Assembly (NCBI GenBank): GCA_964624155.1
Contig: CAZUWM010000003.1
Location: 1 to 61,396, forward strand
DNA from: an uncultured Planctomycetales bacterium
GTDB lineage: Bacteria > Omnitrophota > Gorgyraeia > Aquiviventales > Aquiviventaceae
Length of the DNA: 61,396 nucleotides
Reading direction: 5' to 3'
Part shown: one piece after another, positions 13,287 to 61,308 of the stretch
How the letters are laid out: every line of letters begins with the position of its first letter
Position numbering within the stretch: position 1 is the stretch's first letter
Translations under genes and position numbers: made by a program
Notes under the pieces: generated by a model
Databases searched by the model: none
The model's input: only the letters and a program-made list of their open reading frames with translations
What the model was told of the DNA's origin: nothing

Positions 13287-13293
13287 AGATCAA

Positions 13294-13350
13294 GAACTCC
13301 ACAGATTGACACAGATATCTGTGCTCATCTGTGTGTTGCATCTGTGCTCG
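13294..13350. repeat. CACAGAT/ATCTGTG repeat element at the nuoB-nuoC junction
   Basis: Four CACAGAT-type units then four TCTGTG units; supplies the nuoB tail [11 protein letters not shown]. Confidence 0.7.
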
Positions 13351-13936: not shown

Positions 13937-13985
13937 GCTCGTCTCTCAATCACTCAATCACCTAATCACTCAATCACCGTTTGAA

Positions 13986-22016: not shown

Positions 22017-22040
22017 TCACTTAATCACTCAATCACTTAA

Positions 22041-26439: not shown

Positions 26440-26511
26440 TGCGTTCTCCGATCTTCATTATATATCAACTCACCCCCATACGCATCTTCACCACTTTGCT
26501 GTGGCAACCGC

Positions 26512-26540
26512 TTGATGGTCCAAGAAGAATGAGGTATAAT
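26512..26540 (+). promoter_or_regulatory. Sigma70 promoter of the riboswitch leader
   Basis: TTGATG(26512)-N17-TATAAT(26535) in an AT-rich intergenic region. Confidence 0.65.
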
Positions 26541-26621
26541 TACTTTACAATTTAGAAGTTTAGAAAAGGTTAGGTAATCTCACGATAAATCCGCCACAGG
26601 GCATGGCGGACCCGCCAGGCA

Positions 26622-26749
26622 AGTTGGCGGGGGCAAATCCCGAGCGATCGGGAGACGTCCTGAAAGGGATCCCCCCAGGGTTGATTCGCGAGCGAATCAT
26701 GGGGGGGCAAAGCCGCGGATCCTACGAACGGACAGCCGGGCTGCCGAAC
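26622..26749 (+). ncRNA. c-di-GMP-I (GEMM)-like riboswitch with a 50-nt insertion
   Basis: GGCAAA-TCCCGA-GCGA-TCGGGA-GAC-[26657-26706]-GCAAAGCCGCGG..GGACAGCCGGGCTGCCGAA matches the GEMM layout. Confidence 0.75.
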
Positions 26750-26823
26750 CCTTCGACAGGCTCAGGGTTCAGTCCTGAGCAGAGTCGAAGGACCGAAGAG
26801 AATCGGCAGCCCGGTTTTTGTTT
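26736..26823 (+). terminator. Intrinsic terminator overlapping the aptamer 3' strand
   Basis: CCGGGCTGCCGA (26736-47) pairs perfectly with TCGGCAGCCCGG (26803-14), followed by TTTTTGTTT. Confidence 0.75.
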
Positions 26824-26835
26824 CTACGAGGTCTG

Positions 26836-29800
26836 ATGCAACGTAGATCACAGCATCCCTTCCTTAATATACTCCTCAGTGCAGCCCTTGTGGTTGGACA
26901 GGGCCAACCAGTTGCGCTGGCGGCCGACCGTCGCTCCTCTTTAACCCCCTCACCCTCGCCAACCCCATCACCAACCCCGGATCCCACTCCTTCGCCGACG
27001 CCTTCCCTCTCTCCCTCACCCACGCCGGCCGCCCACCCAGGACGGACCGCCCCTCCTGCGCGATCCGCCGTCACGCTGCAATCAACCCTTGGACGGGCAG
27101 CCTCGGCGGCGTCCACCGTTGGTCCTGCGACGACCGTTCCAACGGGTTTCAGTGACGTCTACGTGCGCGGCACGCAGCTCATGGTCCGCCGCCGGCAGGC
27201 TGACGGCTCGCTGGCCGAGGCACAGCCATACCTCGTCAAAGGTGTCACATGGTCACCGGCGACACGGGCGCCGAGGGACGGGCCCGATCCACGGACTGGC
27301 AGACTCGTGCCGTATGGCTTCTTCTTCGACGGCCCCTGGCGCGCCCCCGGCTTGCAGGGCTACGAGCTGCTGGGCTACTGGCAGCGCGCGCGGTTCGCCG
27401 CGCATTACGCCGCCGATCTCGCCCTCATCGCGCAGATGCACGCCAACACCGTGCGCGTCTACACGGATCTGGGCAACACCCCCGCCGAGGGGCTGCGCGT
27501 GCTCGATGAGTGCTACCGCCGCGGCATCATGGTCATCCTGACCGTGGCATCAGCCAAGGAGGACGTCGACAGCGGCCGCTACCTCGAGCTGGTCAAACGC
27601 TACAAGGATCACCCCGCCATCCTCATGTGGTCGCTGGGGAATGAATGGAACCTCAATCGCTACTTCGGCTATACCATCGATGAGGCGATCCGCGCAACCG
27701 ACTCAGCCGCGCAGACCATCAAGCAACTCGATCGGATGCACCCCGTCACCTCGTCGCTTTCGGATCGCTTCACGGAGGGACGCGACGGCATCACCTGGAT
27801 CGTCCGAAACGTGCCGTCGGTCGACGTGTGGGGGCTCAATGTCTACCGGGGGGCCAGCTTCGGCAACCTCTTCAGCCAGTGGAATGCCATCACGACGAAA
27901 CCGTGTTACCTCAGCGAGTTCGGCACCGACTCCTTCTTTACCCAGCGCTACAAGACGGTGAACGGCTTCCAGGCAGATGACGTCGTCGGACAGGAAGATC
28001 GCCCACGACAGGCGGAGTATGTCCTGGGGCTTTGGAAGGAGCTAAAACTCCGTCTCTCTGCTCTCGATCCCACGAAACGCTGCCTCGGCGGCGCTGTCCA
28101 TACGTTCCAGGACGCCCTCTATTTCGTCGGCTCGTTCCACTTCGGCCTCGGCGGACTCGTCGACTACGACGGCCCTGACCGAAGACCGGGAACGGCTGAC
28201 GATGACACGAGCTACGACGAGTACAACCCCGAGGGCTTGGTGATCGTCGGCGGCCATCCGGATCACGTCGCCAACGAAGAATACTTTGGCCTCGTGGACG
28301 CTGATCGGAATCCTAAACCTGCCTACACCGCCTTGCAGCAGCTCTACGCTCAACTCTCTGTCCCTCCGACGGTCGCCAACCGCCCGCCCGTCCTGGAACC
28401 CATTCCCAATCAGACCGCGAGAGTCGGCGAGGCGAAGACCTTTCCCGGCCTGCTGCGCTTCTCTGACCCCGACGGCCAGGTCCCGACCTTTGTGGTCGTC
28501 AGCGGCGGACCGAACGGTCTCGTCGTGCGCCCGACTCCGACCGTCCCCGGTGTGGCCGACGTGTTCTGGCCCGCCGTCCCTCAACCCGGCACCTGGACGT
28601 TGACCGCCATCGTCCCGGATCCCCAGGAGGGCAATCTCAATGGCCCGCTCGCCGCCCGTCGCCAGTTCACCGTGAGCGTGCAGGCCGCGAATCGCCCTCC
28701 GATCGTCGCATCCTGTGAGACCACGGAAGACGCCTCGCTCATGACCTTATCGTTTGAAGACGTCATGCGCTGTCTGACCGATGCCGCCGTTTCGGAGCCG
28801 TCAAAACGACGTCTCGTTGGCATCCGGGCTGCGCCGACTACCCAGAACCATCTGACCTCACGCCAGGTCTTCACCCTCTTGACCCACCCACAGGTGCCTG
28901 ATTCGGTGAAGGCGGTCACTGTGCAGCTTCGGCGATTCGATCCAGGCGTTGTTGCGATGCAACAGGGGTTCCAAACGATCCTAATCCGTCCGGAGGCAGA
29001 TTTTTCCACTCCGCCTCAGACCGTGGAGACGTTTTTCAGCGCCATCACCAACGTCTACGGCTTCACCGCCGCGTTCAAGCAATACATGCAGTCAGAGTTG
29101 TTTTTCAAAGGGAACAACTTACAATCAGAGGAGCTTGGCAACGGCTACGGTGAGAATCTATTGGTCCTGGTTAGTTCCGGCGCGCACTGGCTCGCCGTCC
29201 ACGAACTCGATCACACATTCTGGGAATGGGAACGCGCGCAGAAAGGGCCATCGATCACTGAAGCGCTCATCCACGCGGTGTATGACGTCGCCACTGGCCG
29301 CATCCCTGTGGCGAAAGCGGAGATCGCCCAGCGTGCTCGCGAGGCGTTGTTCGACCGACACCCCAACGCGTTCCCCCCGAAAGCCGATCAGGCGATCTAT
29401 TCGTGGGAGGAGGTTAAGGCGAAACTTGATGCCATCGATGGCCTCCACGTCCGAACGGCCTTTTGGCCGTGGACCGTGACACGAGAACTGCCTCCTGAGC
29501 TATGGCGATTTTGGAGCGGCATGCTCGGTCCAGAACTCCCACCGGCCACGCGTCACCAGATTCGCCTCGGTAGTCCTAGCGGTCCACCTCCATCAAACAC
29601 CCCAGCAGCCAACCGGCCGCCGACGATTCAGTGGACCAAGGTCTACGATCCAGGTGGATCGATCCTCGGCTTCGTCACCGGCCGGCCGATCACCTTCGAA
29701 GCACAAGCGACTGATCCGGACGGCAAGACCGTGACCTACACATGGGACTTCGGCGATCAGACGACCGCCACCGGCTCAACCGTGCAACATCCCTACGCCC

Positions 29801-30048
29801 GTCCAGGCTCTTATACCGTGACCCTGCGCGTGAGCGACGGCCAGTCCACAGCGACGAAATCAATCCCGATCACCGTCCAAGCCACCAACCCGCCGCCGGT
29901 TGCCGGACAAAATGGGCCGCAGCCTGGCGTGACCGCTGATTCCTCCCTCCCCCAGCGCAAGACGACCCCCACGCGACAACCGGCGGGGCGAGATCCTGCC
30001 CGCCCCGGCATAACGGGTCGGGCCGGGGAGCCTGTCGAAGGACCGTGA
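26836..30048 (+). CDS. Large secreted protein: clan GH-A (GH2-like) barrel, Ig-like module, HExxH region, PKD domain
   Basis: Signal peptide, P/S/T linker, ANTVRVY, LGNE, YLSEFG, NRPPVLEPIPNQT, HELDH, YTWDFGD..H.Y..PG.YTVTLRV. SD GAGGT before ATG 26836. Confidence 0.85.
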   Translation: MQRRSQHPFLNILLSAALVVGQGQPVALAADRRSSLTPSPSPTPSPTPDPTPSPTPSLSPSPTPAAHPGRTAPPARSAVTLQSTLGRAASAASTVGPATTVPTGFSDVYVRGTQLMVRRRQADGSLAEAQPYLVKGVTWSPATRAPRDGPDPRTGRLVPYGFFFDGPWRAPGLQGYELLGYWQRARFAAHYAADLALIAQMHANTVRVYTDLGNTPAEGLRVLDECYRRGIMVILTVASAKEDVDSGRYLELVKRYKDHPAILMWSLGNEWNLNRYFGYTIDEAIRATDSAAQTIKQLDRMHPVTSSLSDRFTEGRDGITWIVRNVPSVDVWGLNVYRGASFGNLFSQWNAITTKPCYLSEFGTDSFFTQRYKTVNGFQADDVVGQEDRPRQAEYVLGLWKELKLRLSALDPTKRCLGGAVHTFQDALYFVGSFHFGLGGLVDYDGPDRRPGTADDDTSYDEYNPEGLVIVGGHPDHVANEEYFGLVDADRNPKPAYTALQQLYAQLSVPPTVANRPPVLEPIPNQTARVGEAKTFPGLLRFSDPDGQVPTFVVVSGGPNGLVVRPTPTVPGVADVFWPAVPQPGTWTLTAIVPDPQEGNLNGPLAARRQFTVSVQAANRPPIVASCETTEDASLMTLSFEDVMRCLTDAAVSEPSKRRLVGIRAAPTTQNHLTSRQVFTLLTHPQVPDSVKAVTVQLRRFDPGVVAMQQGFQTILIRPEADFSTPPQTVETFFSAITNVYGFTAAFKQYMQSELFFKGNNLQSEELGNGYGENLLVLVSSGAHWLAVHELDHTFWEWERAQKGPSITEALIHAVYDVATGRIPVAKAEIAQRAREALFDRHPNAFPPKADQAIYSWEEVKAKLDAIDGLHVRTAFWPWTVTRELPPELWRFWSGMLGPELPPATRHQIRLGSPSGPPPSNTPAANRPPTIQWTKVYDPGGSILGFVTGRPITFEAQATDPDGKTVTYTWDFGDQTTATGSTVQHPYARPGSYTVTLRVSDGQSTATKSIPITVQATNPPPVAGQNGPQPGVTADSSLPQRKTTPTRQPAGRDPARPGITGRAGEPVEGP

Positions 30049-30122
30049 TCCCTGATCCATAAATAAACCCGAGATTGCTATGCATCATCAGATGTGGTAT
30101 TTTACGCAGTGAAGGTAACCCC

Positions 30123-30323
30123 ATGCGTACCACCCTTGATCTGAATGAGAAGTTGTTGTCCCAAGCCATGGCGGCTGCACACACGAAGACGAAGAAAGCA
30201 ACGGTGGAGCGATCGTTGCGTGAATTGATCCGCGCCGCCCACATCGAACGGCTCATCACCCGACGCGGAGAGGGGACGACGCTGACCCTCCGCACGCTGT
30301 CCCGCATGCGTCGGGATGCGTAA
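30123..30323 (+). CDS. vapB: VapB-family antitoxin
   Basis: MRTTLDLNEKLL..AM..TKTKKATVERSLRELI; promoter TTGCTA-N17-TATTTT at 30075-30103. Confidence 0.85.
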   Translation: MRTTLDLNEKLLSQAMAAAHTKTKKATVERSLRELIRAAHIERLITRRGEGTTLTLRTLSRMRRDA

Positions 30324-30735
30324 GCCGCTCGTCTTGGTCGATTCGTCCATCTGGATTCCCTTCCTGCGGAGTCGAACAGCCGATCCGGCGGCGGAACTCC
30401 TGATGGGGCTGCTTCGTGACAAGCGGGTCGCGACCAACTGGCTGATCCGGCTGGAACTGCTCAGTGGAACGGCCACACACCAGGCCTATGAGTCGCTCGA
30501 TGCAGATCTGGCCGCGCTCCATCAGCTCCCGCTGACAGAGAAGGTGTTTCACGCGGCCAGCCTGCTACGATGGCGGCTCCATCGCAAGGGTGCTTCCATT
30601 CCGGTGGTCGATACCCTGATTGCGGCCTGCGCCATCTTCTACGCTTGCCCACTGCTGGAAGACGATGCTCACTTCCGACTGATCGCCAAACACGCCCCGC
30701 TTCATCTTCATCTTTCGTCAGGGCTCCACATTTGA
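30316..30735 (+). CDS. vapC: PIN-domain toxin
   Basis: LVDSSIWI, ELLSG, VDTLIAACA, LLEDDAHF. Confidence 0.9.
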   Translation: MRKPLVLVDSSIWIPFLRSRTADPAAELLMGLLRDKRVATNWLIRLELLSGTATHQAYESLDADLAALHQLPLTEKVFHAASLLRWRLHRKGASIPVVDTLIAACAIFYACPLLEDDAHFRLIAKHAPLHLHLSSGLHI

Positions 30736-30771
30736 CACGCCGGCTGGCACCTCCACCCCCCCGCGCGCAAG

Positions 30772-30877
30772 CCGTGAGCCCTGCTTCGCCAAGGCTTCGC
30801 AGAGGCCTCTCCGAAGCCCTGCTGCGCTGAAGCGAAGCTCCGGCTTCGCAGAGGCGAGCGCGAAGCGCGGAGGAGGG
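30772..30877. repeat. REP-like palindromic cluster (CTTCGCCAAGGCTTCG family)
   Basis: ctgcttcgccaaggcttcgcag, ccgaagcc, gcgaagctccggcttcgc. Confidence 0.6.
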
Positions 30878-30891
30878 CCCTGATCCGCCGA

Positions 30892-31256
30892 TTGGAAATC
30901 CGAGAATTCAGGAGGAGAGATGACCACGAAAATCGTCACCTCGCCGGTCGGCGCGAAAGCCCAGGTTACCCTCCCGAAACTCGTGCGGGAGGCGCTGCAT
31001 TTGACGGCGCAGCAGGACTTGGTTGGCTTCGTGATCTATGGAGGCCGCGTGGCATTGACGCGCATCGAACCGGTGCCCTCCAGCGATCCGTTCACGGACG
31101 AGGAGTGGAAGAAGATCGACCGGCTGACTTCCCAGACCCCCGCCGCCGTGGCAGAGAACGCCGCGGATTCCTTGCGCTACTTGAAGCGTCATCTCGGCCG
31201 CGCGTAATGCGGTATGCCTATCAACCTTCGTTTCTCGAGACCACCCGCCATCTCTC
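30892..31256 (+). repeat. 365-bp direct repeat, copy 1 (copy 2 at 32192-32556)
   Basis: Appears identical at an offset of exactly 1300 bp; identical 95-aa translations. Confidence 0.92.
30920..31207 (+). CDS. AbrB/MazE/SpoVT-fold antitoxin, copy 1
   Basis: KAQVTLPKLVREALHL..DLVGFVI..GRVAL; AGGAGG SD. Confidence 0.8.
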   Translation: MTTKIVTSPVGAKAQVTLPKLVREALHLTAQQDLVGFVIYGGRVALTRIEPVPSSDPFTDEEWKKIDRLTSQTPAAVAENAADSLRYLKRHLGRA

Positions 31257-31371
31257 TTACGCCCAAGCGACCAAGCTGTTGAAGGCCATCCAGAAGTTCC
31301 AGCATGCTATTGAGACGTCCCAGTGGCCTCAGGGGTTAGGCCTCACGCATCTGCGCAACGAGGATGGATAA
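31207..31371 (+). pseudogene. Truncated RelE/ParE-like toxin (54 aa)
   Basis: Homologous to the N-terminal half of 32507-32782; stops at HLRNEDG*. Confidence 0.7.
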
Positions 31372-31489
31372 GTGTCAGACGCTTTCGAACCGTCGTCCTC
31401 CCCTCCCGCGTGTCCGAAGCCTCTTGCGAGACGATGGGCGGTTGACAGTTCATGAGGGGAAGTGTTAAAGTTTAGGTGAGGGTACGTTT

Positions 31490-31705
31490 ATGCATCCGTC
31501 AGTGGGTCTCACGACGATTTCCTATGCGAAATATCAGCGTCGCTATGGCGGCAAGTTCATCGCCCGCCACGACGGGGAGGTCCTGGCAAGCGGCGCCAGC
31601 TATCGGGCGTTGTTGCAGGCGATCCGAAAACGCCGCCTGAGGCGACAAGACGTCATTGTGGGCTACGTCCCCCCCAAAGACGCCATTTGTATTTATGTCA
31701 GTTGA
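31490..31705 (+). CDS. Small DUF5678-like protein
   Basis: KYQRRYGGKFIARHDGEVLASG; promoter TTGACA(31442)..TGnTAAAGT upstream. Confidence 0.7.
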   Translation: MHPSVGLTTISYAKYQRRYGGKFIARHDGEVLASGASYRALLQAIRKRRLRRQDVIVGYVPPKDAICIYVS

Positions 31706-32105
31706 CTTCCCGATCGGGATCAAGGTCATTTCCCTCGGTCGAGTCGCCAATCCCGTCGTGCCCCTCCTTGTCCGGACTCGCCAGGGCTATGTGCCATTCG
31801 ATTTCCTCGTCGATACGGGCGCTGATTGTTCCATGATGCCAGCGTCTATCGCTGAGACAGAGCTCGGCGTGTCTCTCAAACGCGCTCCACAAGAGACATT
31901 CTTCGGAATCGAGGGCAGCGGCCTGCGTGTCTACCGAGGATGGGTTGCTCTGAAAATCGGCCCGTATCCTTTGCGCGTCCGCTGCGTCTTCTCACCTCAT
32001 GAACACACTCCGTTGATCCTCGGACGAATGGATGTATTCCGTCGTTTCACGATCACCTTCGACAATCACCTCCGTCGCATCCGATTCACCAAGCTGGCTC
32101 ACTAG
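31695..32105 (+). CDS. Retropepsin-like (clan AA) aspartyl protease
   Basis: FLVDTGADCS, ILGRMDVF; overlaps the upstream small ORF. Confidence 0.85.
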   Translation: MSVDFPIGIKVISLGRVANPVVPLLVRTRQGYVPFDFLVDTGADCSMMPASIAETELGVSLKRAPQETFFGIEGSGLRVYRGWVALKIGPYPLRVRCVFSPHEHTPLILGRMDVFRRFTITFDNHLRRIRFTKLAH

Positions 32106-32220
32106 TCTTTCATACCAGCTTTCCTTAACCAGCCACAACACAACCTCTTCGATCCCTTGACACGACCGACCTACCCTGGTTATACTTATAGTTGGAAATC
32201 CGAGAATTCAGGAGGAGAGA

Positions 32221-32507
32221 TGACCACGAAAATCGTCACCTCGCCGGTCGGCGCGAAAGCCCAGGTTACCCTCCCGAAACTCGTGCGGGAGGCGCTGCAT
32301 TTGACGGCGCAGCAGGACTTGGTTGGCTTCGTGATCTATGGAGGCCGCGTGGCATTGACGCGCATCGAACCGGTGCCCTCCAGCGATCCGTTCACGGACG
32401 AGGAGTGGAAGAAGATCGACCGGCTGACTTCCCAGACCCCCGCCGCCGTGGCAGAGAACGCCGCGGATTCCTTGCGCTACTTGAAGCGTCATCTCGGCCG
32501 CGCGTAA
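32221..32507 (+). CDS. AbrB/MazE/SpoVT-fold antitoxin, copy 2 (ATG at 32220)
   Basis: Identical to 30920-31207; promoter TTGACA(32157)-N18-TATACT upstream. Confidence 0.8.
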
Positions 32508-32782
32508 TGCGGTATGCCTATCAACCTTCGTTTCTCGAGACCACCCGCCATCTCTCCCCCACGCAAGCAACCAAACTCCTGAAGGCGGTGGAGCGATTCC
32601 AGGCGGCGCTTGAAAGCCGCCAATGGCCCAAGGGATTAGGCGCCACGCATCTGCGAGATGACTATTTTGAATTCCGCGCGGACCTCCATACGCGGGTGAT
32701 CTACCGACGGAGCCGTGACCTGATTCAGTACGTCTTGTGCGGCAGTCACGACGAGGTCAGGCGTTTCTTGAAAACGCGGTAA
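32507..32782 (+). CDS. RelE/ParE-like toxin (91 aa)
   Basis: TAATG coupling to the antitoxin; Y..SFL, LRDDYFEFRADLHTRVIY, GSHDEV. Confidence 0.75.
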   Translation: MRYAYQPSFLETTRHLSPTQATKLLKAVERFQAALESRQWPKGLGATHLRDDYFEFRADLHTRVIYRRSRDLIQYVLCGSHDEVRRFLKTR

Positions 32783-32789
32783 CGACTCC

Positions 32790-32819
32790 TTGACAAGAGG
32801 GGCGGGAGCCTGGTATAGT
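32790..32819 (+). promoter_or_regulatory. Strong sigma70 promoter upstream of the cspA leader
   Basis: TTGACA-N18-TATAGT with a TGn extended -10. Confidence 0.75.
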
Positions 32820-32883: not shown

Positions 32884-32926
32884 AACCGCAGGGCGATCTG
32901 GTCGGTCGTCCAGCGGTTTTTTATTT
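32884..32926 (+). terminator. Intrinsic terminator/attenuator inside the cspA upstream region
   Basis: AACCGC-A-GGGCGATC-tggtc-GGTCGTCC-A-GCGGTT then TTTTATTT. Confidence 0.65.
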
Positions 32927-32929
32927 GAG

Positions 32930-33163
32930 GCCGTCACTTACGGAGCGGGAACGAACGTAAGTGACAGGGCCGAAAATAACCCCGCACCCAGCGCAATGGA
33001 CGTTGGAGCGTGAAATGAGTTTTAGCGCGTTTCGAACTGAACAGACCTCACACACAGCCGACCGCCGTTGGTTCGGCTGGGTGCGGGGTTCAATTCGCAC
33101 ACGCAACTTACGTTCACTAGCGTTCCGTAAGTTGCGTGCTCATTGAAGGGGGGTGTACGACAG
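32930..33163 (+). ncRNA. Unrecognised structured leader RNA, copy 1 (cspA)
   Basis: 15-bp stem 32978-92/33076-90; core 109/118 identical to the reverse complement of 41823-41940. Confidence 0.7.
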
Positions 33164-33367
33164 ATGCCGAGAGGCACCGTGAAGTGGTTCAGCGACCAGA
33201 AGGGGTATGGCTTCATCACCCCGGAGGACGGGTCGAAGGACGTGTTTGTCCATCACAGCGCCATTAAAGCCGACGGCTTTCGCAGCCTTCGGGAAGGCCA
33301 ACAGGTGGAGTTCGAGATCACCCAAGGACCGAAAGGTCCGCAAGCCTCCAACGTGGCGATAGCCTAA
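33164..33367 (+). CDS. cspA: Cold-shock protein
   Basis: [15 protein letters not shown] (RNP1), DVFVHHSAI (RNP2), [10 protein letters not shown]. Confidence 0.97.
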
Positions 33368-36361: not shown

Positions 36362-37882
36362 TCACTGTTCTTCAAAAATCTGATCTTGGAAGGTGAAGAG
36401 GTCGGCGGATTGCCAGGCATCGGGAGGCAGGCCGGCTTTTTGGGAGGCGAGCTCGCGCAAGAACTCCAGGCGGGTCCAGCCGGTTTCGTGCCACACCTGC
36501 GGGAGAAACAACCCGCTGCGACCATCCTTCTGCAAGATCACCCCGTCGCGCCCGGCGACAATCTCTTGAGCCGATGGGACCGGCTGGGAAGGGGTGAGGA
36601 TCGACACCTCGATGGAGACCTGATCCAACTCTTCAGCCGTCATCGGCGCAAAACGCGTATCGCGCAGCGCCGCATCCATGGTCACGATCGGCAGGAGCTG
36701 AGCCAGCGGTACATCGCTTTCGATGCGGCCGATACAACCGCGCAACTCCTTGTTGGCGCGCCGTCGCAGCGTGACGAACATCCCCTGCTTGTTTGAAAGC
36801 TCCGGAAACGACTCGAGCGACACCGGCGCCGCACTGCGGGGATGGAAGTAATGCTGCAATGTTGCGCGGGCCGCGCGCACCAACGCCATCCCCGCCTCCG
36901 AGGAGAGAGGAGAGGAGGGCGACGTGATCAGGGGCACGACGTACAGATCAATGGCGGCATAGCCCACCACGCCACGGCTCTTGTCGCCGGTCGTATCACC
37001 TGAGTTCGCATAGTGGAGGAGGCGGGGCTTCTGATAGCCGAGACGCTCGGTGAGTGAGAGCGCAGCCAGGATCGGCCCTCGACCACACGCCTCGAGATGG
37101 CCAGCCTGAAACAATCGATCCACGGCGCTGGAGGTTTCGCGCAAGATGAGGTTGATCGTCTGCTCGTCACGTCGCTTTGCGTCATCATAGGGGTGGTAGT
37201 GCGACAAATCTGTGCTGAAGACGAACAGATAATTGTCCTGCTTGGCGAGTGTGGCGAGCGAGTCAGCGAGCGCCTGCGCATCTTTCAAGTCCACACTGCC
37301 CATCAGAATGGGAATCAGCTTGAAGTCGCCAAGGGTGACTTGGAGAAACGGCAGCATCACCTCGATCGAGTGCTCCCCGGAGGCATGCGCCGACTCTACG
37401 TGCGAGAGGCCGGGTTGCAGCATCAGCCATGCGGCAACATTGGTATCAATGGGAATGACCCCAAGCGGGGTCTGGTAGCCATCACGGTCATCCACCGAGC
37501 TGCCCTCAAATTGGCCGCGGTGGGTGAACCCAACGACGACAACCCCCTCGTAGGAGTGCCCTTGCACCTGGCGAAACGCGCGGGCGGCCACGGGGCCGGA
37601 ATATTCGTATCCAGCGTGAGGGACGATCAGGACGCTCGGCACAGGGGCTGAGGCGTCGGGCTCAGGCTGCTGGCTGAGGAGCTGTGTGACGAGGGCGCGA
37701 AGGGCGGTTGGGTCGTCCGGATAAAACGAGCCCGCAACCTGCGCTTCCCTGACCTCCGCACCGACCACAGAAGTCACAGATAGACAGAAACACACCACAG
37801 ATAACACACAGATAAATCTTCTGTACCCTCTGTGGAGCAGCTGTGTCATCTGTGGAGTTTCTGTGGCATCTGTGGTGATCAT
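36362..37882 (-). CDS. AmmeMemoRadiSam protein B (MEMO1) + protein A (AMMECR1) fusion
   Basis: VAGSFYP, PHAGYEYSG, EHSIEV.LPFLQ, STDLSHY, ANSGD; GMFVTL..LRGCIG, DTRF, LFLPQVW, LASQKAG. Confidence 0.92.
   Translation of the reverse strand: MITTDATETPQMTQLLHRGYRRFICVLSVVCFCLSVTSVVGAEVREAQVAGSFYPDDPTALRALVTQLLSQQPEPDASAPVPSVLIVPHAGYEYSGPVAARAFRQVQGHSYEGVVVVGFTHRGQFEGSSVDDRDGYQTPLGVIPIDTNVAAWLMLQPGLSHVESAHASGEHSIEVMLPFLQVTLGDFKLIPILMGSVDLKDAQALADSLATLAKQDNYLFVFSTDLSHYHPYDDAKRRDEQTINLILRETSSAVDRLFQAGHLEACGRGPILAALSLTERLGYQKPRLLHYANSGDTTGDKSRGVVGYAAIDLYVVPLITSPSSPLSSEAGMALVRAARATLQHYFHPRSAAPVSLESFPELSNKQGMFVTLRRRANKELRGCIGRIESDVPLAQLLPIVTMDAALRDTRFAPMTAEELDQVSIEVSILTPSQPVPSAQEIVAGRDGVILQKDGRSGLFLPQVWHETGWTRLEFLRELASQKAGLPPDAWQSADLFTFQDQIFEEQ
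37765..37880. repeat. CACAGA/TCTGTG repeat element, copy in the Memo-Amme gene 5' end
   Basis: Same unit structure as 3851-3960 and shares a 17-mer with it. Confidence 0.75.
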
Positions 37883-39520: not shown

Positions 39521-41149
39521 TCAAGTCCATGCGCCCCGCAACGCCGTGAGGGCATCATCCGTCACAGCGGAGGGCGCGCGATCGGTGGAGAGCTTCGTCC
39601 ACTGGGAGGACGTCCAGCCACGGACGGGCTCAAACCCTTCCCTCAGGCGATCATAGTGTTCTGGCTTGGCCTCTGAGAGATCACGCCTCTGTGCATATCG
39701 TGCCCCGAGGCGCTGGATCGCCACCGCTCGCGGCGCCGTGCACTCGAAGAAATGAAACGAGGCGCCGTGGCGTCGCGCGATCTGAGCCAGCGTCCGGCGG
39801 CCTTCGGCTTTCGAGAAGGTCCCATCGCAGATGACCGAGCGGCCCTGGCGCACGAGGGCGTCGGCGCGCTGGATGAGCCGCTGGTAAACCAGCGCGGAGA
39901 CGCGCGGCGCATAGAGCCCATCGGCAAATCCTGACCCCGCCTCTGCTTCGCCGCCTGGCTTCGCAGCAGCAAGCCGCCGAAATCGCGCAAATTCTTTCAG
40001 TCGAATCTCATCCGTCCGAAGCCAGACCGCGCCCAGTCGCTCGGCGAGGGCCTTCGCGAGTGTGCTCTTCCCTGTCCCGATGAGCCCGCCGACGGCGATG
40101 AGTCGAGGCGGCGCAAACTGGCGGGTGTAGCGAAGCGCCAGGGCGAAGTGCCGCCGGGACAGCTCCCGAAGCCGACGACCTTCTGGAGTACGTGGATGTT
40201 GGAGCCACGCCAGTCCCCTGACCTTCCCTCGCACGAGAGTCCGATGGCACTTGTAGAACGGGAGCAGTAGATCACCGGTCGAATCGTTGAACCCTCGTCG
40301 ATACTGAGCGACCAACGCGTCGGCCAACCGGCGTTTCCCTCGGAATTCCAAATCCATCACGAGGAAGCTCAGGTCGTTCACCGCATCACCGCACCGAAAC
40401 GCCGGTTGAAACTCCACGCAGTCGAAGATCGTCACCGGATCAGTCACGCAAATATTTTCACAGCGCAAGTCGCCGTGCCCGTCAACGATCCGTCTCTCAC
40501 GGATTCGCTGCTGCAGTAGGGGTCCATGGAGGGTGAGAAATTGACGATACGCCGACTCCAGGAATCGGCGATCCGACTCAGAGACGAGCCGCCCGACGAA
40601 GGGGGCGCACTCCTGCAGATTGCCTAGCACCAACTGGGCGACGGCTGCTGGGGTGCCGAAGCGAGTAATTTGCGCGCTGCGTGCCGCGCGCTTGAAGAAC
40701 CGAACCAAGGTCTGCCCGATGTGGAGCATGTCGCCTCGGCCGACTCGGCGTCTTGCCACGAGCTGATCGAGCATGCGCGCTTCGGGCAGTCGGCGCATCT
40801 TGACGAGCCATTCAACCGTCTTCCCCCGCCCCCCAAGCTGAAGCGCTCCTCCTCGTTCCACGACCGGCACAAGACCGAGATAGATGCGGGGAGCTAAGCG
40901 CCGATTGAGAGCAAGCTCCAAACCACACCATCGCTTGCGCAGCGAAAGCGTGGAGGCGTCGAGGAACGGAAACTTCACCGGCTTCTTGAGCTTGTACGCG
41001 AACGATCCGGCGAGGAAGACATGGGAGACATGCGTCTCGCGGCGCTCCACCCGATCGACCGCGTGAGGATAGTTCGCGGGATCTGAGAAGAACGAGACGA
41101 GACGACGTTCGTGCGTGGCCAGAACGGTGGACTTACGTGAGTTTCCCAA
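39521..41149 (-). CDS. Bifunctional aminoglycoside-phosphotransferase-like / AAA_33 P-loop kinase
   Basis: ETHVS, YKLKKPV, DGHGDLR.ENI, FDCVEF; GGLIGTGKS (Walker A). Start uncertain (TTG 41149 or 41194). Confidence 0.88.
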   Translation of the reverse strand: MGNSRKSTVLATHERRLVSFFSDPANYPHAVDRVERRETHVSHVFLAGSFAYKLKKPVKFPFLDASTLSLRKRWCGLELALNRRLAPRIYLGLVPVVERGGALQLGGRGKTVEWLVKMRRLPEARMLDQLVARRRVGRGDMLHIGQTLVRFFKRAARSAQITRFGTPAAVAQLVLGNLQECAPFVGRLVSESDRRFLESAYRQFLTLHGPLLQQRIRERRIVDGHGDLRCENICVTDPVTIFDCVEFQPAFRCGDAVNDLSFLVMDLEFRGKRRLADALVAQYRRGFNDSTGDLLLPFYKCHRTLVRGKVRGLAWLQHPRTPEGRRLRELSRRHFALALRYTRQFAPPRLIAVGGLIGTGKSTLAKALAERLGAVWLRTDEIRLKEFARFRRLAAAKPGGEAEAGSGFADGLYAPRVSALVYQRLIQRADALVRQGRSVICDGTFSKAEGRRTLAQIARRHGASFHFFECTAPRAVAIQRLGARYAQRRDLSEAKPEHYDRLREGFEPVRGWTSSQWTKLSTDRAPSAVTDDALTALRGAWT

Positions 41150-41753
41150 CGGTGTACGATGACCGAATGCTCGCCCAGATCGCCAGCATCCCAAGGCCGA
41201 TGGCCAAGAGGAGCGCGGGGGCGCTTATCGCGCCGTAGTGAGCCGGCGCGAGCATGCCGAAGAGCATGGGACCGGAGAGGAACGTATTGATCCGAGAGGT
41301 CAGCAGCGCCCGTTTCCTCACCGCCGGAGCCTGTTCGGCCGGGACTTTGCCGGTCAGCAGACGCTTCTGGGCCGGCCAGATGATGAACCACACGTTGAAC
41401 CACATGATGGTTCCCAACAGCATACCGAACAAAATCCACATGGCCCGCTGGGTCATTCCCATCGTATCGATCAACAAACTGGTCGGCCCAAATCCTACCC
41501 CTGGGGTATAGAAGTAGGTCAGGACAAACAGCGTCAGGCCGGCGAGGAAGGTGATCATCGCGCCCCACCGGAACCACCACAAGACTCGCGGCATCAGTTG
41601 CGGATTGACGGCCTTTTTGGTGGCGTCATCGAGCGAACCTTGGAGGGGGACATTGACGAAGTTGAAAAAATAGAGATGTCCGATCCAGGTAATGCCCGCG
41701 ATCACATGGAGCCATCGGACGATCAAGTGGACGTTGCTGTAGAGATCCGGCAT
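41133..41753 (-). CDS. Membrane protein of the urate-oxidase-N / PuuD-like family
   Basis: RWLHVIAGITWIG.LYFFNFV, WWFRWGA, IM.FNVW.IIWP.Q, SRINT.LS.PMLF.M. Confidence 0.75.
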   Translation of the reverse strand: MPDLYSNVHLIVRWLHVIAGITWIGHLYFFNFVNVPLQGSLDDATKKAVNPQLMPRVLWWFRWGAMITFLAGLTLFVLTYFYTPGVGFGPTSLLIDTMGMTQRAMWILFGMLLGTIMWFNVWFIIWPAQKRLLTGKVPAEQAPAVRKRALLTSRINTFLSGPMLFGMLAPAHYGAISAPALLLAIGLGMLAIWASIRSSYTVGKLT

Positions 41754-41986
41754 GGTCGCTCACCCTCCTTCAATGAAGGCACACGTTACGGAGTCCGCAG
41801 GACGACGTAACGTGTCGTGCCTGAATTGAACCCCGCACCCAGCCGAACCAACGTTGGTCGTCTAGGTGTGAGGTCTGCTCAGTTCGAAACGCGCTGAAAC
41901 TCATTTCACGCTCCAACATCCATTGTGCTGGGTGCGGGGTACGTTCGGCCAGCCCTTTACGTCACCGTGTTCCGTAAAGGGCTGCC
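41754..41986 (-). ncRNA. Unrecognised structured leader RNA, copy 2
   Basis: Homologue of 32930-33163; promoter TTGATG-N16-TATAAT at 42020-41993. Confidence 0.7.
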
Positions 41987-42003
41987 TCACGTATTATACA
42001 CCC

Positions 42004-44205
42004 TCACCGAACCGCATCAAGGAGTTCCACCATCTTCGCGACATCGGTGGTCGGCAGATTACACAGATAGTTCTGGCAGACGTAGGCGGTGGATTGGCCC
42101 TGAAGCGGTAGTTGATTCGCCACAAACGGGATCAGGGCTTCGATCGCGCTGGCCTTTGACCCGCTCGGATGAAACGCCGCAACCGCTCTGGGGAGGAAGC
42201 GACGGTGAACCGCCTGAATCATGGACTGAGTCTGTGGAGTGGAGGGATCGCCGGCGATGACGATCTCTTGCGAGGGGCCCAGCCAATGATCCAGGGCGAT
42301 GAGAAACTGGGGAAAGGCGTGCGGAGCGCGGGCCACCTCTCCCGAGAAGGCTTCGATGAGCCGCTTCGCCTTCTCCTGCAGGACGTCATCCATCGTCAGC
42401 GTGCCTAAGCGAACCAACACCAGGGCGGCCACCGAGTTGCCTGACGGAACCGCGCCGTCGTACAACTCCTTGGTGCGGGCGATGAGGGTTTCATTCTTGG
42501 CGCCGCCCAGGAACAACCCGCCTGAGGAGTCATCCCAGAAGAGCCGCACCATCTCGTTCGTCAACCGTTTCGCCTCCGAGAGCCAGCGCGCGTCGAACGT
42601 CGCCTCGTAGAGCTCCAGCAAGCCCCAGCTCAAGAAGGCGTAGTCATCGAGGAACGCTGGGATGGCGGCTTCCCCGTCTCGATAGCGATGCAGGAGCCTC
42701 CCCTTCTGTTGAAGACGATCCAGCACGAATGACGCCGCCCGCGTCGCCTCCTCTGCATACTGCGGCTCTCCCAACGCTTTGGCCCCGTAGGCGAGGACGC
42801 CGATCATCAGGCCGTTCCAGTCGGTGAGGATTTTGTCATCGCGGTGCGGCCGCTTCCGACGGTTTCGAGCCTCCAACAGTTTGGCCCGCGCGGCGTCAAG
42901 CCGCGTCTGAACCGACGGGTCGGGGGATGTCGCCGTCGTCAGAATCGTCGTGCCGTTCTCTCCGCCAAACTGATTGGCGGATCCGCCATGCTGTGTGGCG
43001 GAAAAGTTCCCGGCCAGCGTCACGCCAAACGCTTCCATGACGAAGGCGGCGTCTTCCTCGCCAACCACCGTCTTGATCTCCTCCGGCGTCCAGACGTAAA
43101 ACTCCCCTTCCTTCCCCACCTCGCCAGCATCCTCTGCGGAATAGAACGCGCCCTCGGGACCGCGCAGATCCCGCAGCACGTAGGTGAAGATGTCCCTCGC
43201 CGTCTGGGCGTACGAGGCGTTGCCGGTCACTTGATAGGCTTCGAGGTACGTCCGCGCCAGCAGCGCCTGATCGTAGAGCATCTTCTCAAAATGCGGGACC
43301 AGCCACTGCTCATCTGTCGAGTAGCGGTGGAAGCCTCCGCCCAGATGGTCGTGAATGCCGCCCCGCGCCATGGCATCCAGCGTTTCCTCGACCATCTTCA
43401 GCAGCTGGGGATCGCGCTGCCGATACCACACCCTCAACAGGAACGACAGCGCATGGCTGCGGGGAAACTTCGGGGCTGAGCCGAATCCGCCATGGGTGGG
43501 GTCATACTGGTTGCTGAACTGGACCGCCGCGGTTTGCAGTGTTTCAAGGCCCACGGACGACGAGACGGTGCGTTCGGCGCCGGCCTGCAGAGCTTGGGTA
43601 ATGGATTGACTCGAGGTGAGGAGGTCGTGGCGTTTGGTCTGCCAGGACTCGTGGATCGAGCGCAAGACCGTCTTGAACCCCGGTCGGCCGAACGCGTCCT
43701 CCGGAGGAAAATACGTCCCACCCCAAAACGGTTTGCCCTCCGGAGTCAAGAACACGGTCATCGGCCAGCCGCCTTGCCCCGACATCGCTTGGACCGCGCT
43801 CATGTAGAGCGCATCGAGGTCGGGACGCTCCTCCCGATCGACCTTGATCGAGACAAACCAGTCGTTCATCAATTTGGCAATCTCTGGACTCTCGAAGGAT
43901 TCCTGCTCCATGACATGACACCAGTAACAGGTGGAATAGCCGATAGAGAGCAGGATCGGCTTGTCTTCCCGCTTGGCGCGGGCCAACGCCTCCTCCCCCC
44001 ATGGATACCAGTCCACGGGGTTGTGGGCGTGCTGCAAGAGGTAGGGACTCTTTTCTTTAATCAGGCGATTGGATTGGCGAGCGGTCTGTTCCTGCGCCAT
44101 GCGCGTGGGCTCTGTAGTGGTCCGTGGACGGATGCCGGCCACCCACAGGGTAGCCGCCATCCCGGCGACCACGGCCATCAACAACCACCACTTCCTTTTT
44201 ACCAT
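42004..44205 (-). CDS. YyaL/SPATA20-like protein (DUF255 thioredoxin plus alpha/alpha-barrel)
   Basis: [58 protein letters not shown]. Confidence 0.93.
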
Positions 44206-49317: not shown

Positions 49318-50670
49318 TCATCGGGCGTTCTCTCGTACGAACTGCTCCACAAGCGGCCGAACCATTCGTTCTTTGGACAGCGGAAAGAAGTCGAAGAGCA
49401 TACAAAGCTCACTGACTGTTGAATGGACTAAATCGATCAGCTTGGGTTCAATGTCTTTCAGACGTTCTTTAATCCATGCCTCCGCTTCATCCTCAATACA
49501 CACTCGTTGAGTGTGCATCGTCATCGCCCGTCCAGGGTCACCTGCCGATAGGACCCGGCTTCGAAGCCCAGTGTACCGGATTCTGATCACGACTTTCTGT
49601 TCAGGTCCTACGTGAAGGGTTCGATACAGCCGGCTGATTCGCATGAGGGTTTCTGCGGTGCGGACAATCCGCGTATCCACGAAAATCTTCCCTTCGGATC
49701 GCTCATCTTCAAACAGCGTCTTCAGGAGATAAAACACCCGGTCTGTCCGAAGCGCCCAGTAGTCGAACGAAGATCGGCCCGTTAGTCCACCGGTCAGAAT
49801 GGTGGCTCGGATTCCGTCCTTATGAGGCTTTGGCGCATCTGCCGGTCGAGTCATTACCAGCCCGATCGGCCATCCGAATGAATGTACCTGGGTCTGCTCC
49901 ATGGCTCGCCGCAGCTCATCCTGCCGAAATTGCAGGGTTGTGTCCGGCGTCTGTCCCGTCGCTACTTTCCACGCGTCCTGCTGTGCGTTAACCACGGTAT
50001 CTGGAAGATAGGCGAGCACTTCCATCAAGCATTTGTCAAGTTGCCGAGTCTTCGCGATACCAAGCGCCTCTCGCCGCTCCTGCTCAACCCATGCTTTGAG
50101 GTTGTTGTACTCATCAGCAACTTTGACCTCTTCCGCATGGGCTTGGCGCGGTGGCCTCAAGATAAAATCAAAGTCACAGCCTGCCTTGCTCGCAAATCTC
50201 CGGAGATAGTCGATCGTGATCTTCTCCCGTCCTTGTTCGATTCCGGAGACGAACTGCTGGCTGCAGCCGAGCATCTCAGCCACTTCTCCTTGTGAGAGGT
50301 GCAGGGCTTCTCGACACTGGCGCAACTTGCTGGTCAATTCTTCAATGAACGGGTCAGGCTCACGAGGCTGCCTCTGGCGAAGCCTTACTCCGGAATGCTT
50401 AAACTCGCGGCTATACCGCTCGTAGGTGGCTCGCCAGAACGCCCCTTTCTCCTTGGTCCATTCATCCTTATTGACCTCTTGCTGGATGGCGTAGAACCGA
50501 CGACAAAATGCCAGCGGCTTAATCAAGGAGAACACCTGCTCAGGATCATCAACTCGTGCCAACAGGCGGGCAGCCACCCGGGGAAATTTGGGATTCTGCT
50601 CATCGGTCAAGATGTCCCGAATCTTCTCGATCGGCATGCCTAAATCCCAATACCAATTCTCACGTTTCAT
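49318..50670 (-). CDS. XRE HTH-containing multidomain protein with a large uncharacterised C-terminal domain
   Basis: Central LSQGEVAEMLGCSQQFVSGIEQG; ATGA overlap with the upstream NTase; AT-richer. Confidence 0.75.
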   Translation of the reverse strand: MKRENWYWDLGMPIEKIRDILTDEQNPKFPRVAARLLARVDDPEQVFSLIKPLAFCRRFYAIQQEVNKDEWTKEKGAFWRATYERYSREFKHSGVRLRQRQPREPDPFIEELTSKLRQCREALHLSQGEVAEMLGCSQQFVSGIEQGREKITIDYLRRFASKAGCDFDFILRPPRQAHAEEVKVADEYNNLKAWVEQERREALGIAKTRQLDKCLMEVLAYLPDTVVNAQQDAWKVATGQTPDTTLQFRQDELRRAMEQTQVHSFGWPIGLVMTRPADAPKPHKDGIRATILTGGLTGRSSFDYWALRTDRVFYLLKTLFEDERSEGKIFVDTRIVRTAETLMRISRLYRTLHVGPEQKVVIRIRYTGLRSRVLSAGDPGRAMTMHTQRVCIEDEAEAWIKERLKDIEPKLIDLVHSTVSELCMLFDFFPLSKERMVRPLVEQFVRENAR

Positions 50671-51368
50671 GTGGTCACGTAGCGACGGTTCAGACGCTCA
50701 TACACCTGCTGTTCCATGTGTCGCATGATTTGCTTGATATTACCCTCTGGCGCAATATCAAGCAGGTCAAACGTGGTCCCTTGACCTGTCATCGCTTGCA
50801 GCCACCGCGTCAGCCGCTGATAGTCCTGACGGCCAAAATGGGTTGGAAACCACTCGTGCAGCGGTGCATAGTGTGTCGAAAGATACCACAGGTCAAAAAG
50901 GTCTTTGGCGTAGTCTCTCCCTCCGGCAAGCCGTTGTCCAGTTGAAGATACTTTGTCGGTCCATCCGATGACAGCACGAACCTTTCGCAGGTAAATGTCA
51001 TCCATTGACGCGATACCATCCTGCTCAACCGGCTGCAGCAATGGATCAAAGTCTTCGATGATGTCTACCTTCACAAATATTCCCTTAGCAACATTGAATT
51101 CGTAGACCGCCACCTTCGCAAGACGAGGCCTGATCCGTTCGTCCAAGAGGCGGAATGAAAACCCTGTTGCTCGCTCAATGCACTTGCCAAGCGTTCGGTG
51201 CAACTTGTGGCTCCATTGTTGAGTGAAGAAATCGATATCTTCCGAGTAACGATGCCGACAACGGATCGCAAGGGCCGTTCCTGCCGCCAGATAAACACCA
51301 AGATTAGCCGCAGTGACAGCCTTGAGCATTCTCTTCTGCACTTCAATGATAGTTTGATTGATAGACAT
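50667..51368 (-). CDS. AbiEii/AbiGii-like nucleotidyltransferase
   Basis: YLAAGTALA..HRYSEDIDFF, KVDII, KDLFDLWYL. Confidence 0.85.
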   Translation of the reverse strand: MSINQTIIEVQKRMLKAVTAANLGVYLAAGTALAIRCRHRYSEDIDFFTQQWSHKLHRTLGKCIERATGFSFRLLDERIRPRLAKVAVYEFNVAKGIFVKVDIIEDFDPLLQPVEQDGIASMDDIYLRKVRAVIGWTDKVSSTGQRLAGGRDYAKDLFDLWYLSTHYAPLHEWFPTHFGRQDYQRLTRWLQAMTGQGTTFDLLDIAPEGNIKQIMRHMEQQVYERLNRRYVTT

Positions 51369-60385: not shown

Positions 60386-61249
60386 ATGACTCAACGGGTA
60401 ATTACTGTGGGGCATACGCCGGACATGGACGACGCGTTCATGTTCTACGCCATCGCGGAGGGCAAGGTGGCCGTGGAGGGGTTCTCCATCCAACATGTCA
60501 TTGAAGACATTCAAGCCCTGAACCAACGAGCCCTCCGCGCTGAATTGGATGTCACCGCGGTCTCGGCGGCCGGCTACCCGCTCATGGCCAAAGACTACTG
60601 GATCCTCTCGATCGGTTCCAGCGTGGGGCGCGGCTATGGGCCGCTCGTCGTCGCCACCAAGGGCTGCAATCCTCAAGAGCTTGCGGGGGGGCGCTACGTG
60701 GCCGTGCCGGGCCTGCACACGACGGCGTACCTGGTCTTACGCTTAGCCATTCCGGAGATCGTGCCGGTCGAGATGCCGTTTGAGCAGATCCCGGAGTCGG
60801 TCTTGAGCGGGCGGGTGGAGGCGGGGCTCTTGATTCATGAACGACAACTGACGTATCGCGATCAAGGGCTGCTGCCGATCCTAGACCTCGGGACGTGGTG
60901 GCAGACCCAGACGAAACTGCCCTTGCCGCTCGGTCTGAACGTCATCAAGCAGTCGCTCGGCCAACCGTTGGCCACGCAATTCGCGCAACTCTTGAAGGAC
61001 AGCATTGTCTACGCGATGACCCATCAGGATGAAGCGCTGAGTTGGTCGTTGCGCTACGGACGGGGGATTGACCCCGTCCGCGCCCGACAATTCGTGAGCA
61101 TGTATGTCAATGAAGACACCCTCACCTTCTCCCCCGCGTGCCAGCAGGCGTTGCATCTCCTGTACGAACGCGCGCAGGCCTGTGGCCTCATTCCCTCCGT
61201 GCCCCCGTTGACCTTCATCCAGCCGACCACACAGATTTCACAGATTTAA
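60386..61249 (+). CDS. mqnD: 1,4-dihydroxy-6-naphthoate synthase (futalosine pathway)
   Basis: GHTPDMDDAFMFYAI, GRGYGP, PG.HTTA, LLIHE, DLG.WW..T.LPLPLG, MYVN. Confidence 0.9.
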   Translation: MTQRVITVGHTPDMDDAFMFYAIAEGKVAVEGFSIQHVIEDIQALNQRALRAELDVTAVSAAGYPLMAKDYWILSIGSSVGRGYGPLVVATKGCNPQELAGGRYVAVPGLHTTAYLVLRLAIPEIVPVEMPFEQIPESVLSGRVEAGLLIHERQLTYRDQGLLPILDLGTWWQTQTKLPLPLGLNVIKQSLGQPLATQFAQLLKDSIVYAMTHQDEALSWSLRYGRGIDPVRARQFVSMYVNEDTLTFSPACQQALHLLYERAQACGLIPSVPPLTFIQPTTQISQI

Positions 61250-61308
61250 AAACAGATTGCACAGATTGATCTGTGAAATCTCACTTCAAGAATCTGTGTA
61301 ATCTGTGT
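61230..61308. repeat. CACAGATT/AATCTGTG repeat element between convergent mqnD and def
   Basis: Four ACAGATT units then three ATCTGTG units. Confidence 0.75.

Follow-up and report, generated by a model that had tools for sequence, protein, structure and literature searches.

A nested-palindrome module of a cold-shock leader and its second copy before a PuuD-like gene in an Omnitrophota lineage

Why do two different genes of one bacterial contig share a long palindromic leader? The question is raised by a stretch of 61,396 nt (GenBank assembly GCA_964624155.1, contig CAZUWM010000003.1, from an uncultured Omnitrophota bacterium), which we refer to as the window (61 kb). It holds two copies of a module of nested palindromes in 5' untranslated regions (5' UTRs): copy 1 precedes a cold-shock protein gene (csp) with a CSD domain and copy 2 precedes a gene for a PuuD-like membrane protein. 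Close homologues of both the Csp and the PuuD-like protein carry Candidatus Omnitrophota names; a recorded sequence identical to either protein of the window was not found. An earlier interpretation made from the letters alone, in the following the sequence-only reading, had taken copy 2 as a second copy of the leader that has its own promoter and keeps two alternative RNA pairings under selection. Our best explanation, to which we give about an even chance, is that one Candidatus Omnitrophota clade has the module as a palindromic resident of its csp leader, similar in kind to REPIN, BIME or miniature transposable elements with inverted repeats (MITEs), which was copied into a second 5' UTR.

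The copy 2 locus lies on the minus strand. Here 250 nt separate the stop codon of an upstream open reading frame (ORF) of 733 aa (42004-44205, DUF255/thioredoxin-like, Thioredox_DsbH) from the ATG (41753) of the PuuD-like ORF (206 aa, 41133-41753, Pfam Urate_ox_N). Copy 2 occupies 41769-41989, from TGAGGC to CATTGAA, and consists of three palindromic parts. The first, H1 (41947-41986), is a unit hairpin with a G+C-rich stem of 12 bp, CAGCCCTTTACG / CGTAAAGGGCTG (arms 41984-41973 and 41961-41950; -24.8 kcal/mol). It is followed by a core palindrome of 111 nt (41830-41940) with a perfect 14-bp closing stem, ACCCCGCACCCAGC / GCTGGGTGCGGGGT, and by H3 (41769-41829), a long, bulged hairpin of the form TTCAAT-TC-AGGCAC..CACGTTACG / CGTAACGTG..TGCCT-TC-ATTGAA (-28.3 kcal/mol). 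The Shine-Dalgarno sequence (SD) AGGAGG (41769-41764), a spacer and the ATG (41753-41751) of the downstream gene complete the leader.

Copy 1 is found on the plus strand at 32926-33147 (H1 32929-32971, core 32979-33089, H3 33090-33147), directly 5' of the csp gene (33164-33367, 67 aa). That copy 2 is a second copy of this leader, as had been proposed, holds true: the homology runs from TGAGGC through TCAATTC and H3 up to the SD. The similarity is uneven along the module. The cores can be aligned without gaps and are identical at 102 of 111 positions (92%), whereas the H1 part (62% identity) and the H3 part (72%) differ more and contain indels (core versus flanks, Fisher p = 4e-6). Both copies fold far below the energies of shuffled sequences, with z = -6.6 for the copy 2 region and z = -5.1 for copy 1.

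How the second gene came by its leader can be read from the orthologous loci of relatives. In three of them (L007-L009) the synteny is as in the window and the puuD-like gene has 85% DNA identity. These loci read ...TTGATGCGATCCGGTGAGGGTGTATAATAACGCCACACAGGAGGG...ATG, with only 37 nt from stop codon to ATG. Two further loci, L006 and L010, have short upstream intergenic regions as well, each with its own TATAAT-like box. The module is absent from all five (L006-L010), i.e. there is a presence/absence polymorphism at orthologous sites, and the window lineage has about 220 extra nt placed between TATAAT-ACG and AGGAGGG. The comparison shows copy 2, at the level of the sequence, as an insertion of about 220 nt that is specific to this lineage. 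A target-site duplication was not visible: the left flanks of the three full instances of the module (the two copies and that of the relative L092, see below) are ATT, ACG and ACA, the right flank is always TTGAAGG, and the empty site of L007 has no duplicated bases. The earlier statement that the module is not a simple MITE, because no such duplication is visible, thus stands.

Upstream of copy 2 a promoter-like site, TTGATG-N16-TATAAT, is found at 42020-41993 (TTGATG 42020-42015, TATAAT 41998-41993). Its spacer holds the stop codon of the upstream ORF (42006-42004), such that the last codons of this ORF contain the -35 hexamer. Within 41600-42200 one promoter-like site is present, namely this one, compared to 0.3 in shuffled sequences, and no other is found inside the module or after it. 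The site had been taken as the promoter of the module itself. It is a plausible promoter and the only one there, but L007-L009, which read ...CTTGATGCGATCCGGTGAGGGTGTATAATAACGCCACACAGGAGGGCGAGTCATCATG, carry an identical TTGATG-16-TATAAT and no module. Since the same site exists without the module, it belongs to the locus: the comparison shows a putative promoter that is ancestral to the puuD-like gene and was not imported with the insertion.

The csp leaders of relatives reveal where the module is at home. In the window the csp gene has a promoter-like site TTGACA-N18-TATAGT (32790-32819, plus strand), which is kept in the relatives L003 and L094. It lies about 110 nt upstream of copy 1 H1, and in between, at 32884-32922 (plus strand), is the candidate leader attenuator, a terminator-like hairpin with a T6 run behind it, which lies outside the part shared with copy 2 and is common to many Omnitrophota csp leaders. 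In the following, identities are those of the DNA of each relative's csp gene to the window csp; L003, L092 and L094 are from ENA/Logan assemblies (ERZ27254845, ERZ27245685 and ERZ27284380). The leader of L092 (84%) follows the order of the window, with the attenuator, TGAGGCC, H1, CCGAA, ACCCCGCAC...GTGCGGGGT (about 107 nt), TCAATTC, H3 and TCATTGAAGG; the sequences of its core interior and H3 stem are unrelated to those of the window. L003 (88%) has one unit only, with an insert of about 50 nt in its loop. In L094 (90%) nothing lies between attenuator and SD, L091/L095 (87% for L091) and L093 (84%) have different hairpins, and the leader of L001 (82%) is unrelated. The module is thus absent or different in L094, L091, L093 and L001; the more distant L092 keeps it, whereas the closer L094, L003 and L091 lack it or have it rearranged, which argues that it is dispensable. 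Among 80 csp loci from GTDB species genomes no leader was similar to the module, and many shared the attenuator only.

The palindromes of the module are related to each other. A covariance model, R1, was built from the H1 units of copy 1, copy 2 and L092. Copy 2 H1 scored 63.5 bits with it, and on the opposite strand the model matched H3, with 49 bits in copy 1 (E 2e-12) and 27 bits in copy 2 (E 1e-5, plus strand 41774-41829). With filters off it gave no other match anywhere in the window. All units follow the frame n5-TGAG-stem-TTACGGA...ACGTAA-stem-CGAA-n5' with a length of about 59 nt and are pairwise 60-74% identical in either orientation; the copy 1 H3 stem is nearly that of L092 H1. Over its whole length copy 1 has arms of 67 nt that are 73% complementary. 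Terminal inverted repeats are present both in the core, with its perfect 14-bp stem, and in H3 as the inverted copy of the H1 unit. The module thereby reads as unit(+) – core palindrome – unit(−), with H3 being the H1 unit in inverted and diverged form.

A short motif, TTACG-N5-25-CGTAA, occurs four times in the window, always within the two copies, compared to 0.22 expected occurrences. Such an excess could come from duplex-DNA operators, i.e. four TTACG-N11-15-CGTAA inverted repeats bound by a dimeric transcription factor, and the first site of copy 2 is located right at the predicted transcription start. The half-site spacing varies, however (11, 13, 13 and 15 nt), and the complementarity reaches 10-16 bp past the motif and covaries. 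L092 changes both half-sites compensatorily (TTAGG/CCTAA) and does not have the motif in its H3, and in copy 1 the promoter lies over 100 nt upstream of the sites. Due to the variable spacing, the complementarity beyond the motif and the joint change of the half-sites we consider operators highly improbable.

Are the stems maintained? RNAalifold on copy 1, copy 2 and L092 provided a three-hairpin consensus of 57 pairs, and 15 of these show changes on both sides that keep the pair. The 4-5 nt that flank TGAG...CGAA of H1 covary as well (TTATT/AATAA, TACG/CGTA, CACA/TGTG). The alignment thus shows that the predicted hairpin formation is maintained across the two copies and L092. The claim that the structure is under selection is borne out as far as hairpins are kept with different sequence, but the conclusion about selection does not follow. 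Template switching during replication is able to produce perfect stems, and to preserve them, in a single step (PMC8794818), such that compensatory changes in palindromes are not by themselves proof of selection on RNA. H3 as a reverse-complement copy of H1 is a symmetry at the DNA level. The cores of the two copies are almost alike, yet their units are as diverged as the orthologous units in L092. Conserved cores between diverged units suggest gene conversion between the cores or a core cassette with conserved ACCCCGCAC termini that is exchanged independently.

An inverted pair of units allows for two folds. Within copy 2 the local hairpin ACACGTTACG/CGTAACGTGT has its arms at 41781-41796 and 41800-41815, and the long-range 7-mers pair as TTACGGA/TCCGTAA (41971-41977 with 41786-41792) and GACGTAA/TTACGTC (41957-41963 with 41804-41810). 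All of these, as well as the promoter-like hexamers, are present in the sequence as the sequence-only reading had described them. From them a bistable leader had been proposed, in which H1 and H3 exchange strands into long-range helices and the switch, conserved in both copies, regulates the downstream genes. We compared the local and the long-range conformers in silico by constrained folding. For copy 1 the two conformers are nearly equal in energy, with the local fold at -100.6 and the long-range fold at -102.4 kcal/mol (a difference of -1.8 kcal/mol) and the centroid being the long-range fold. A paired difference between the copies, GAACGTAA/TTACGTTC to GACGTAA/TTACGTC, also keeps the inner long-range helix. 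For copy 2, however, the local fold is at -114.3 and the long-range fold at -94.5 kcal/mol. The penalty of the long-range fold, +19.8 kcal/mol at 37 °C, rises to +26.5 kcal/mol at 5 °C, i.e. this fold is about 20 kcal/mol worse or more at every tested temperature and the gap grows upon cooling.

The comparison with shuffled sequences leads to the same result. A clear excess of the H1xH3 duplex over shuffles exists only in copy 1; copy 2 is marginal (fractions 0.03 and 0.10) and L092, whose H1 and H3 share no sequence, is within the shuffles (0.07 and 0.52). The local hairpins beat every shuffle in all cases. Of the two pairings said to be kept in copy 2, the 7-mers are thus there, but the long-range fold is strongly disfavoured and its duplexes are barely above shuffles. 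Selection on a common logic of alternative pairings is contradicted by L092, which has H1, core, H3 and the linkers without any cross-pairing, and by the single hairpin of L003. A homologue lacking the alternative pairings had beforehand been named as the refuting case, and L092 is such a homologue. The results show that the long-range pairing is not conserved and that there is no conserved RNA switch. The double pairing is automatic for an inverted pair of units each of which is itself palindromic, and since the SD is moreover equally exposed in both conformers (see below), we regard the bistable leader as very unlikely.

A leader may also act by hiding the ribosome-binding site (RBS). In the constrained folds the SD did not pair with the module in either conformer. 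The predicted opening energy of the SD at the puuD-like gene was 6.1 kcal/mol for copy 2 versus 5.9 kcal/mol for the module-less L007; at csp it was 0.9-2.6 kcal/mol for copy 1 versus 2.4 kcal/mol for the module-less L094. The predicted accessibility of the RBS is hence equal with and without the module. This unchanged predicted accessibility and the lack of an anti-RBS conformer in the predicted folds speak against an RBS-sequestering thermoswitch. One of the relatives differs in this respect: in the csp leader of L093 (1352-1503) the SD (GAAGGGAGG) is predicted to pair with a U/C-rich tract after the attenuator, an arrangement which, unlike the module of the window, would sequester the RBS.

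For E. coli, Listeria and S. aureus it is known that long structured 5' UTRs control the csp genes, and the S. aureus cspB and cspC leaders are paralogous thermoswitches (PMC8034633). Their logic is that one conformer locks an anti-RBS into a long hairpin and the other pairs it to the RBS (PMC8034633). The module resembles these thermoswitches (E. coli cspA RF01766, L. monocytogenes cspA, S. aureus cspB/cspC; PMC8034633) as a long structured csp 5' UTR with paralogous copies in one genome, a long imperfect hairpin and, for copy 1, two near-equal conformations. It differs from them in that it has no RBS-sequestering conformer, does not keep the alternative fold in copy 2 or L092, has no Rfam match to cspA, is about twice as long and, as copy 2, stands before a non-csp gene.

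The module could nevertheless be a dedicated regulatory 5' UTR of csp type, which responds to cold or Csp, controls stability or translation, and upon copying recruited the puuD-like gene to its regulon. Its home site, a csp 5' UTR as in the long structured csp UTRs elsewhere (PMC8034633), would be in agreement with this idea. So would the same orientation and SD abutment in all three full instances, an architecture that is kept between lineages with csp genes 16% apart in DNA, the compensatory changes in the stems, and the U-rich apical parts of both core types. Against it speak the closer csp genes of L094, L003 and L091, from whose leaders the module is missing or rearranged, the unchanged predicted SD accessibility without a sequestering conformer, and the unrelated core interiors of window and L092. 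In addition, H3 as a reverse complement of H1 has no obvious RNA rationale. We therefore hold a dedicated csp-type UTR to be possible but, on balance, rather unlikely.

The core could instead be translated. In both window copies it contains an SD-like GGAG and an ATG (GGAG-N6-ATG) with a frame that is open for 43-44 codons to the same TGA in CATTGAAGG, and of the nine positions at which the two cores differ, two are synonymous in this frame. A leader peptide from such an upstream ORF might be coupled to the downstream start or unmask it. L092, however, lacks a counterpart of this ATG and of the SD; the one ORF that it has in this place starts with TTG and passes through the conserved GTGCGGGGTTCAATTC in another frame. 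A codon-degenerate pattern of the core gave no match in 185,579 GTDB species genomes, and the core translated in three frames (as a chimeric query) had no relatives among 5.8 billion proteins. We dropped the translated ORF as scarcely probable at all, because the start is missing from L092, where the conserved junction is read in a different frame.

Searches for known families were negative otherwise as well, and limited scans added no further copies of the module. Rfam scans of both strands gave no match at gathering scores, at E<=10 only chance-level matches to snoRNAs and miRNAs, and none to the cspA model. An exact 20-mer of the core had only two unrelated matches in JGI metagenomes, the terminal-stem pattern had none in viral contigs, and blastn against plasmids and phages returned no match to the core. 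Upon scanning 93 related loci (268 kb) with the unit model, units were found only in csp leaders. Transposases, RAYT proteins and reverse transcriptases were absent among the 63 window ORFs scanned with Pfam, a set that takes in every one of the 57 non-overlapping long ORFs. Three further candidates were rejected. ARAGORN found no tRNA or tmRNA from which the GGGGTTCAATTC stretch could originate, a retron ncRNA, considered due to a sub-threshold retron-effector match of the Csp protein, lacks a reverse transcriptase in the window, and occurrences of CATTGAAGG at 20788 and GTTCAATTC at 7224 are chance matches, both in coding sequence.

Palindromic repeats of known kinds provide the closest comparison. 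REPs of E. coli and Pseudomonas are 20-40 nt long, have a conserved 5' GTAG and are found mostly at the 3' ends of genes or between genes. In common with REP, BIME and REPIN elements the module has short palindromic units in both orientations that are mosaic with other motifs, and inverted pairs of units that give a long hairpin; neither leaves target-site duplications, and REPs are, as the module would be, carried within mRNAs. Its units are longer, however (about 59 versus 20-40 nt), start with TGAG instead of GTAG, and are only four in 61 kb, all in the two 5' UTR modules, where they abut the SD. In addition, no RAYT or IS200/IS605-like Y1 transposase was among the scanned window ORFs.

The ERIC elements of enterobacteria provide a comparison of MITE type, and so do, among MITEs in UTRs, the Correia elements of Neisseria (PMC2649163). 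These and the module are imperfect palindromes of 100-250 bp with conserved cores. Shared with both Correia and ERIC elements are the presence or absence at orthologous sites, the position between promoter and gene with co-transcription (predicted for the module), and the long duplexes to be expected, which RNases can recognise. The module differs by lacking a TA or other target duplication and a clean terminal-repeat boundary of the homology between copies, by its apparently very low copy number (two in 61 kb, in the same context), and by creating no promoter. The module represents a new family among palindromic 5' UTR elements, ordinary in kind, rather than a demonstrated switch.

The proposed course of events is the following. 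The home site would be the csp 5' leader, where the module consists of a unit of about 59 nt, a core of about 110 nt closed by ACCCCGCAC/GTGCGGGGT, and an inverted second unit. By duplicative insertion or illegitimate recombination it may have been copied into the short 5' UTR of the puuD-like gene, landing between the pre-existing promoter and the SD. Transcription from the ancestral promoter would start around 41986, such that the predicted 5' end would be followed by H1 after 2-4 nt. The transcribed module is predicted to form three stable stem-loops and to leave the RBS as accessible as before. Its likeliest effect would then be on the fate of the mRNA, with a 5' stem-loop and with long duplexes as possible targets of RNase III, other nucleases or Csp. 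In E. coli, stem-loops at the 5' end protect mRNAs, as in leaders of the ompA type. The 12-bp G+C-rich H1 of copy 2 would be alike in its position 2-4 nt from the predicted 5' end; a difference is that this start is only predicted and that in copy 1 H1 comes behind the attenuator, about 100 nt from the start of the transcript.

Several observations weigh against a palindromic resident that was copied as a mobile element. With two modules (four units) in 61 kb, and only csp leaders at the related loci, it is rarer than a prolific repeat, which would be expected to be found more widely. Neither a visible target-site duplication nor a transposase or RAYT gene in the window accompanies it. The homology of the copies may extend beyond the palindrome into the SD-ATG spacer (GGGTG..CGAC), which fits a one-off recombination better than transposition; one-off illegitimate recombination and a mobile element are equally possible. 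The contrast between cores (92%) and units (62-72%) is not explained by a simple single duplication. The uniform orientation and SD abutment of the three full instances fit a selected RNA function too. An effect of the module on the mRNA is conjecture.

A variant of the copied palindromic resident would see it as a portable 5' UTR cassette. A domesticated palindrome would provide cold-shock-type post-transcriptional control of how stable or how well translated an mRNA is in the cold, perhaps by way of Csp binding or of RNase III, and could be copied before other genes, such that the regulon grows by 'leader transposition'. The conserved core (92% versus 62-72% in the flanks) would be its functional part or, again, an independently exchanged cassette. 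We consider this variant improbable.

If the module alters the fate of the mRNA, this would be a natural case, in the little-known, uncultured phylum Omnitrophota, of a gene that took over from a cold-shock gene a structured leader ready for use, and it would show palindromic repeats seeding regulatory RNA structure. The locus also calls for caution in two respects. Two alternative pairings with compensatory differences can arise automatically from inverted palindromic units and alone do not point to a riboswitch-like device, and a promoter beside a repeat may be that of the host locus rather than of the repeat.

Further observations concern the surroundings of the csp gene. The attenuator hairpin recurs in other Omnitrophota csp leaders as a CCGC..GCGG-type hairpin followed by 5-7 T shortly before the SD (L011, L012, L014, L015, L018, L003, L092 and L094). 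It is a candidate attenuator, which Csp antitermination may relieve. Shortly before the csp promoter a perfect direct repeat is found at 30892-31250 and 32192-32550, 1300 nt apart (300 nt by repeat search, about 355 nt by eye). It takes in a small AbrB/SpoVT-like ORF (MTTKIVTSPVGAKAQVTLPKLVREALHL...) and the beginning of the small ORF that follows, and looks like a duplicated toxin-antitoxin-like cassette. The relatives L001, L003, L091 and L092 have aconitase directly upstream of csp. In the window about 6.4 kb (26440-32790) lie between the aconitase gene (24169-26439, minus strand) and the csp promoter; they encode a PKD/GH2-like protein of 1076 aa and contain, besides the duplicated cassettes, one ORF with a PIN domain and one that is aspartyl-protease-like. 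This region looks like an inserted island.

The window contains other repeats. Dispersed short repeats based on CACAGAT(T/A) form intergenic inverted pairs at 3876-3935, 13267-13341, 17748-17781, 37770-37877 and 61229-61308; they are a second small repeat family, unrelated to the module. Short tandem arrays with a period of 8 nt, CACTCAAT/CACTTAAT, are located at 13943-13993 and 22010-22052, 8 kb apart. Repeats with a period of 102 nt at 2909-3783 lie inside the ORF of a TPR-repeat protein (2729-3943, minus strand), i.e. they are coding repeats and no DNA element. At 49318-51368 an ORF for an AbiEii-type nucleotidyltransferase toxin adjoins an ORF with an HTH domain, and the two probably form a toxin-antitoxin pair of type IV or an abortive-infection pair.

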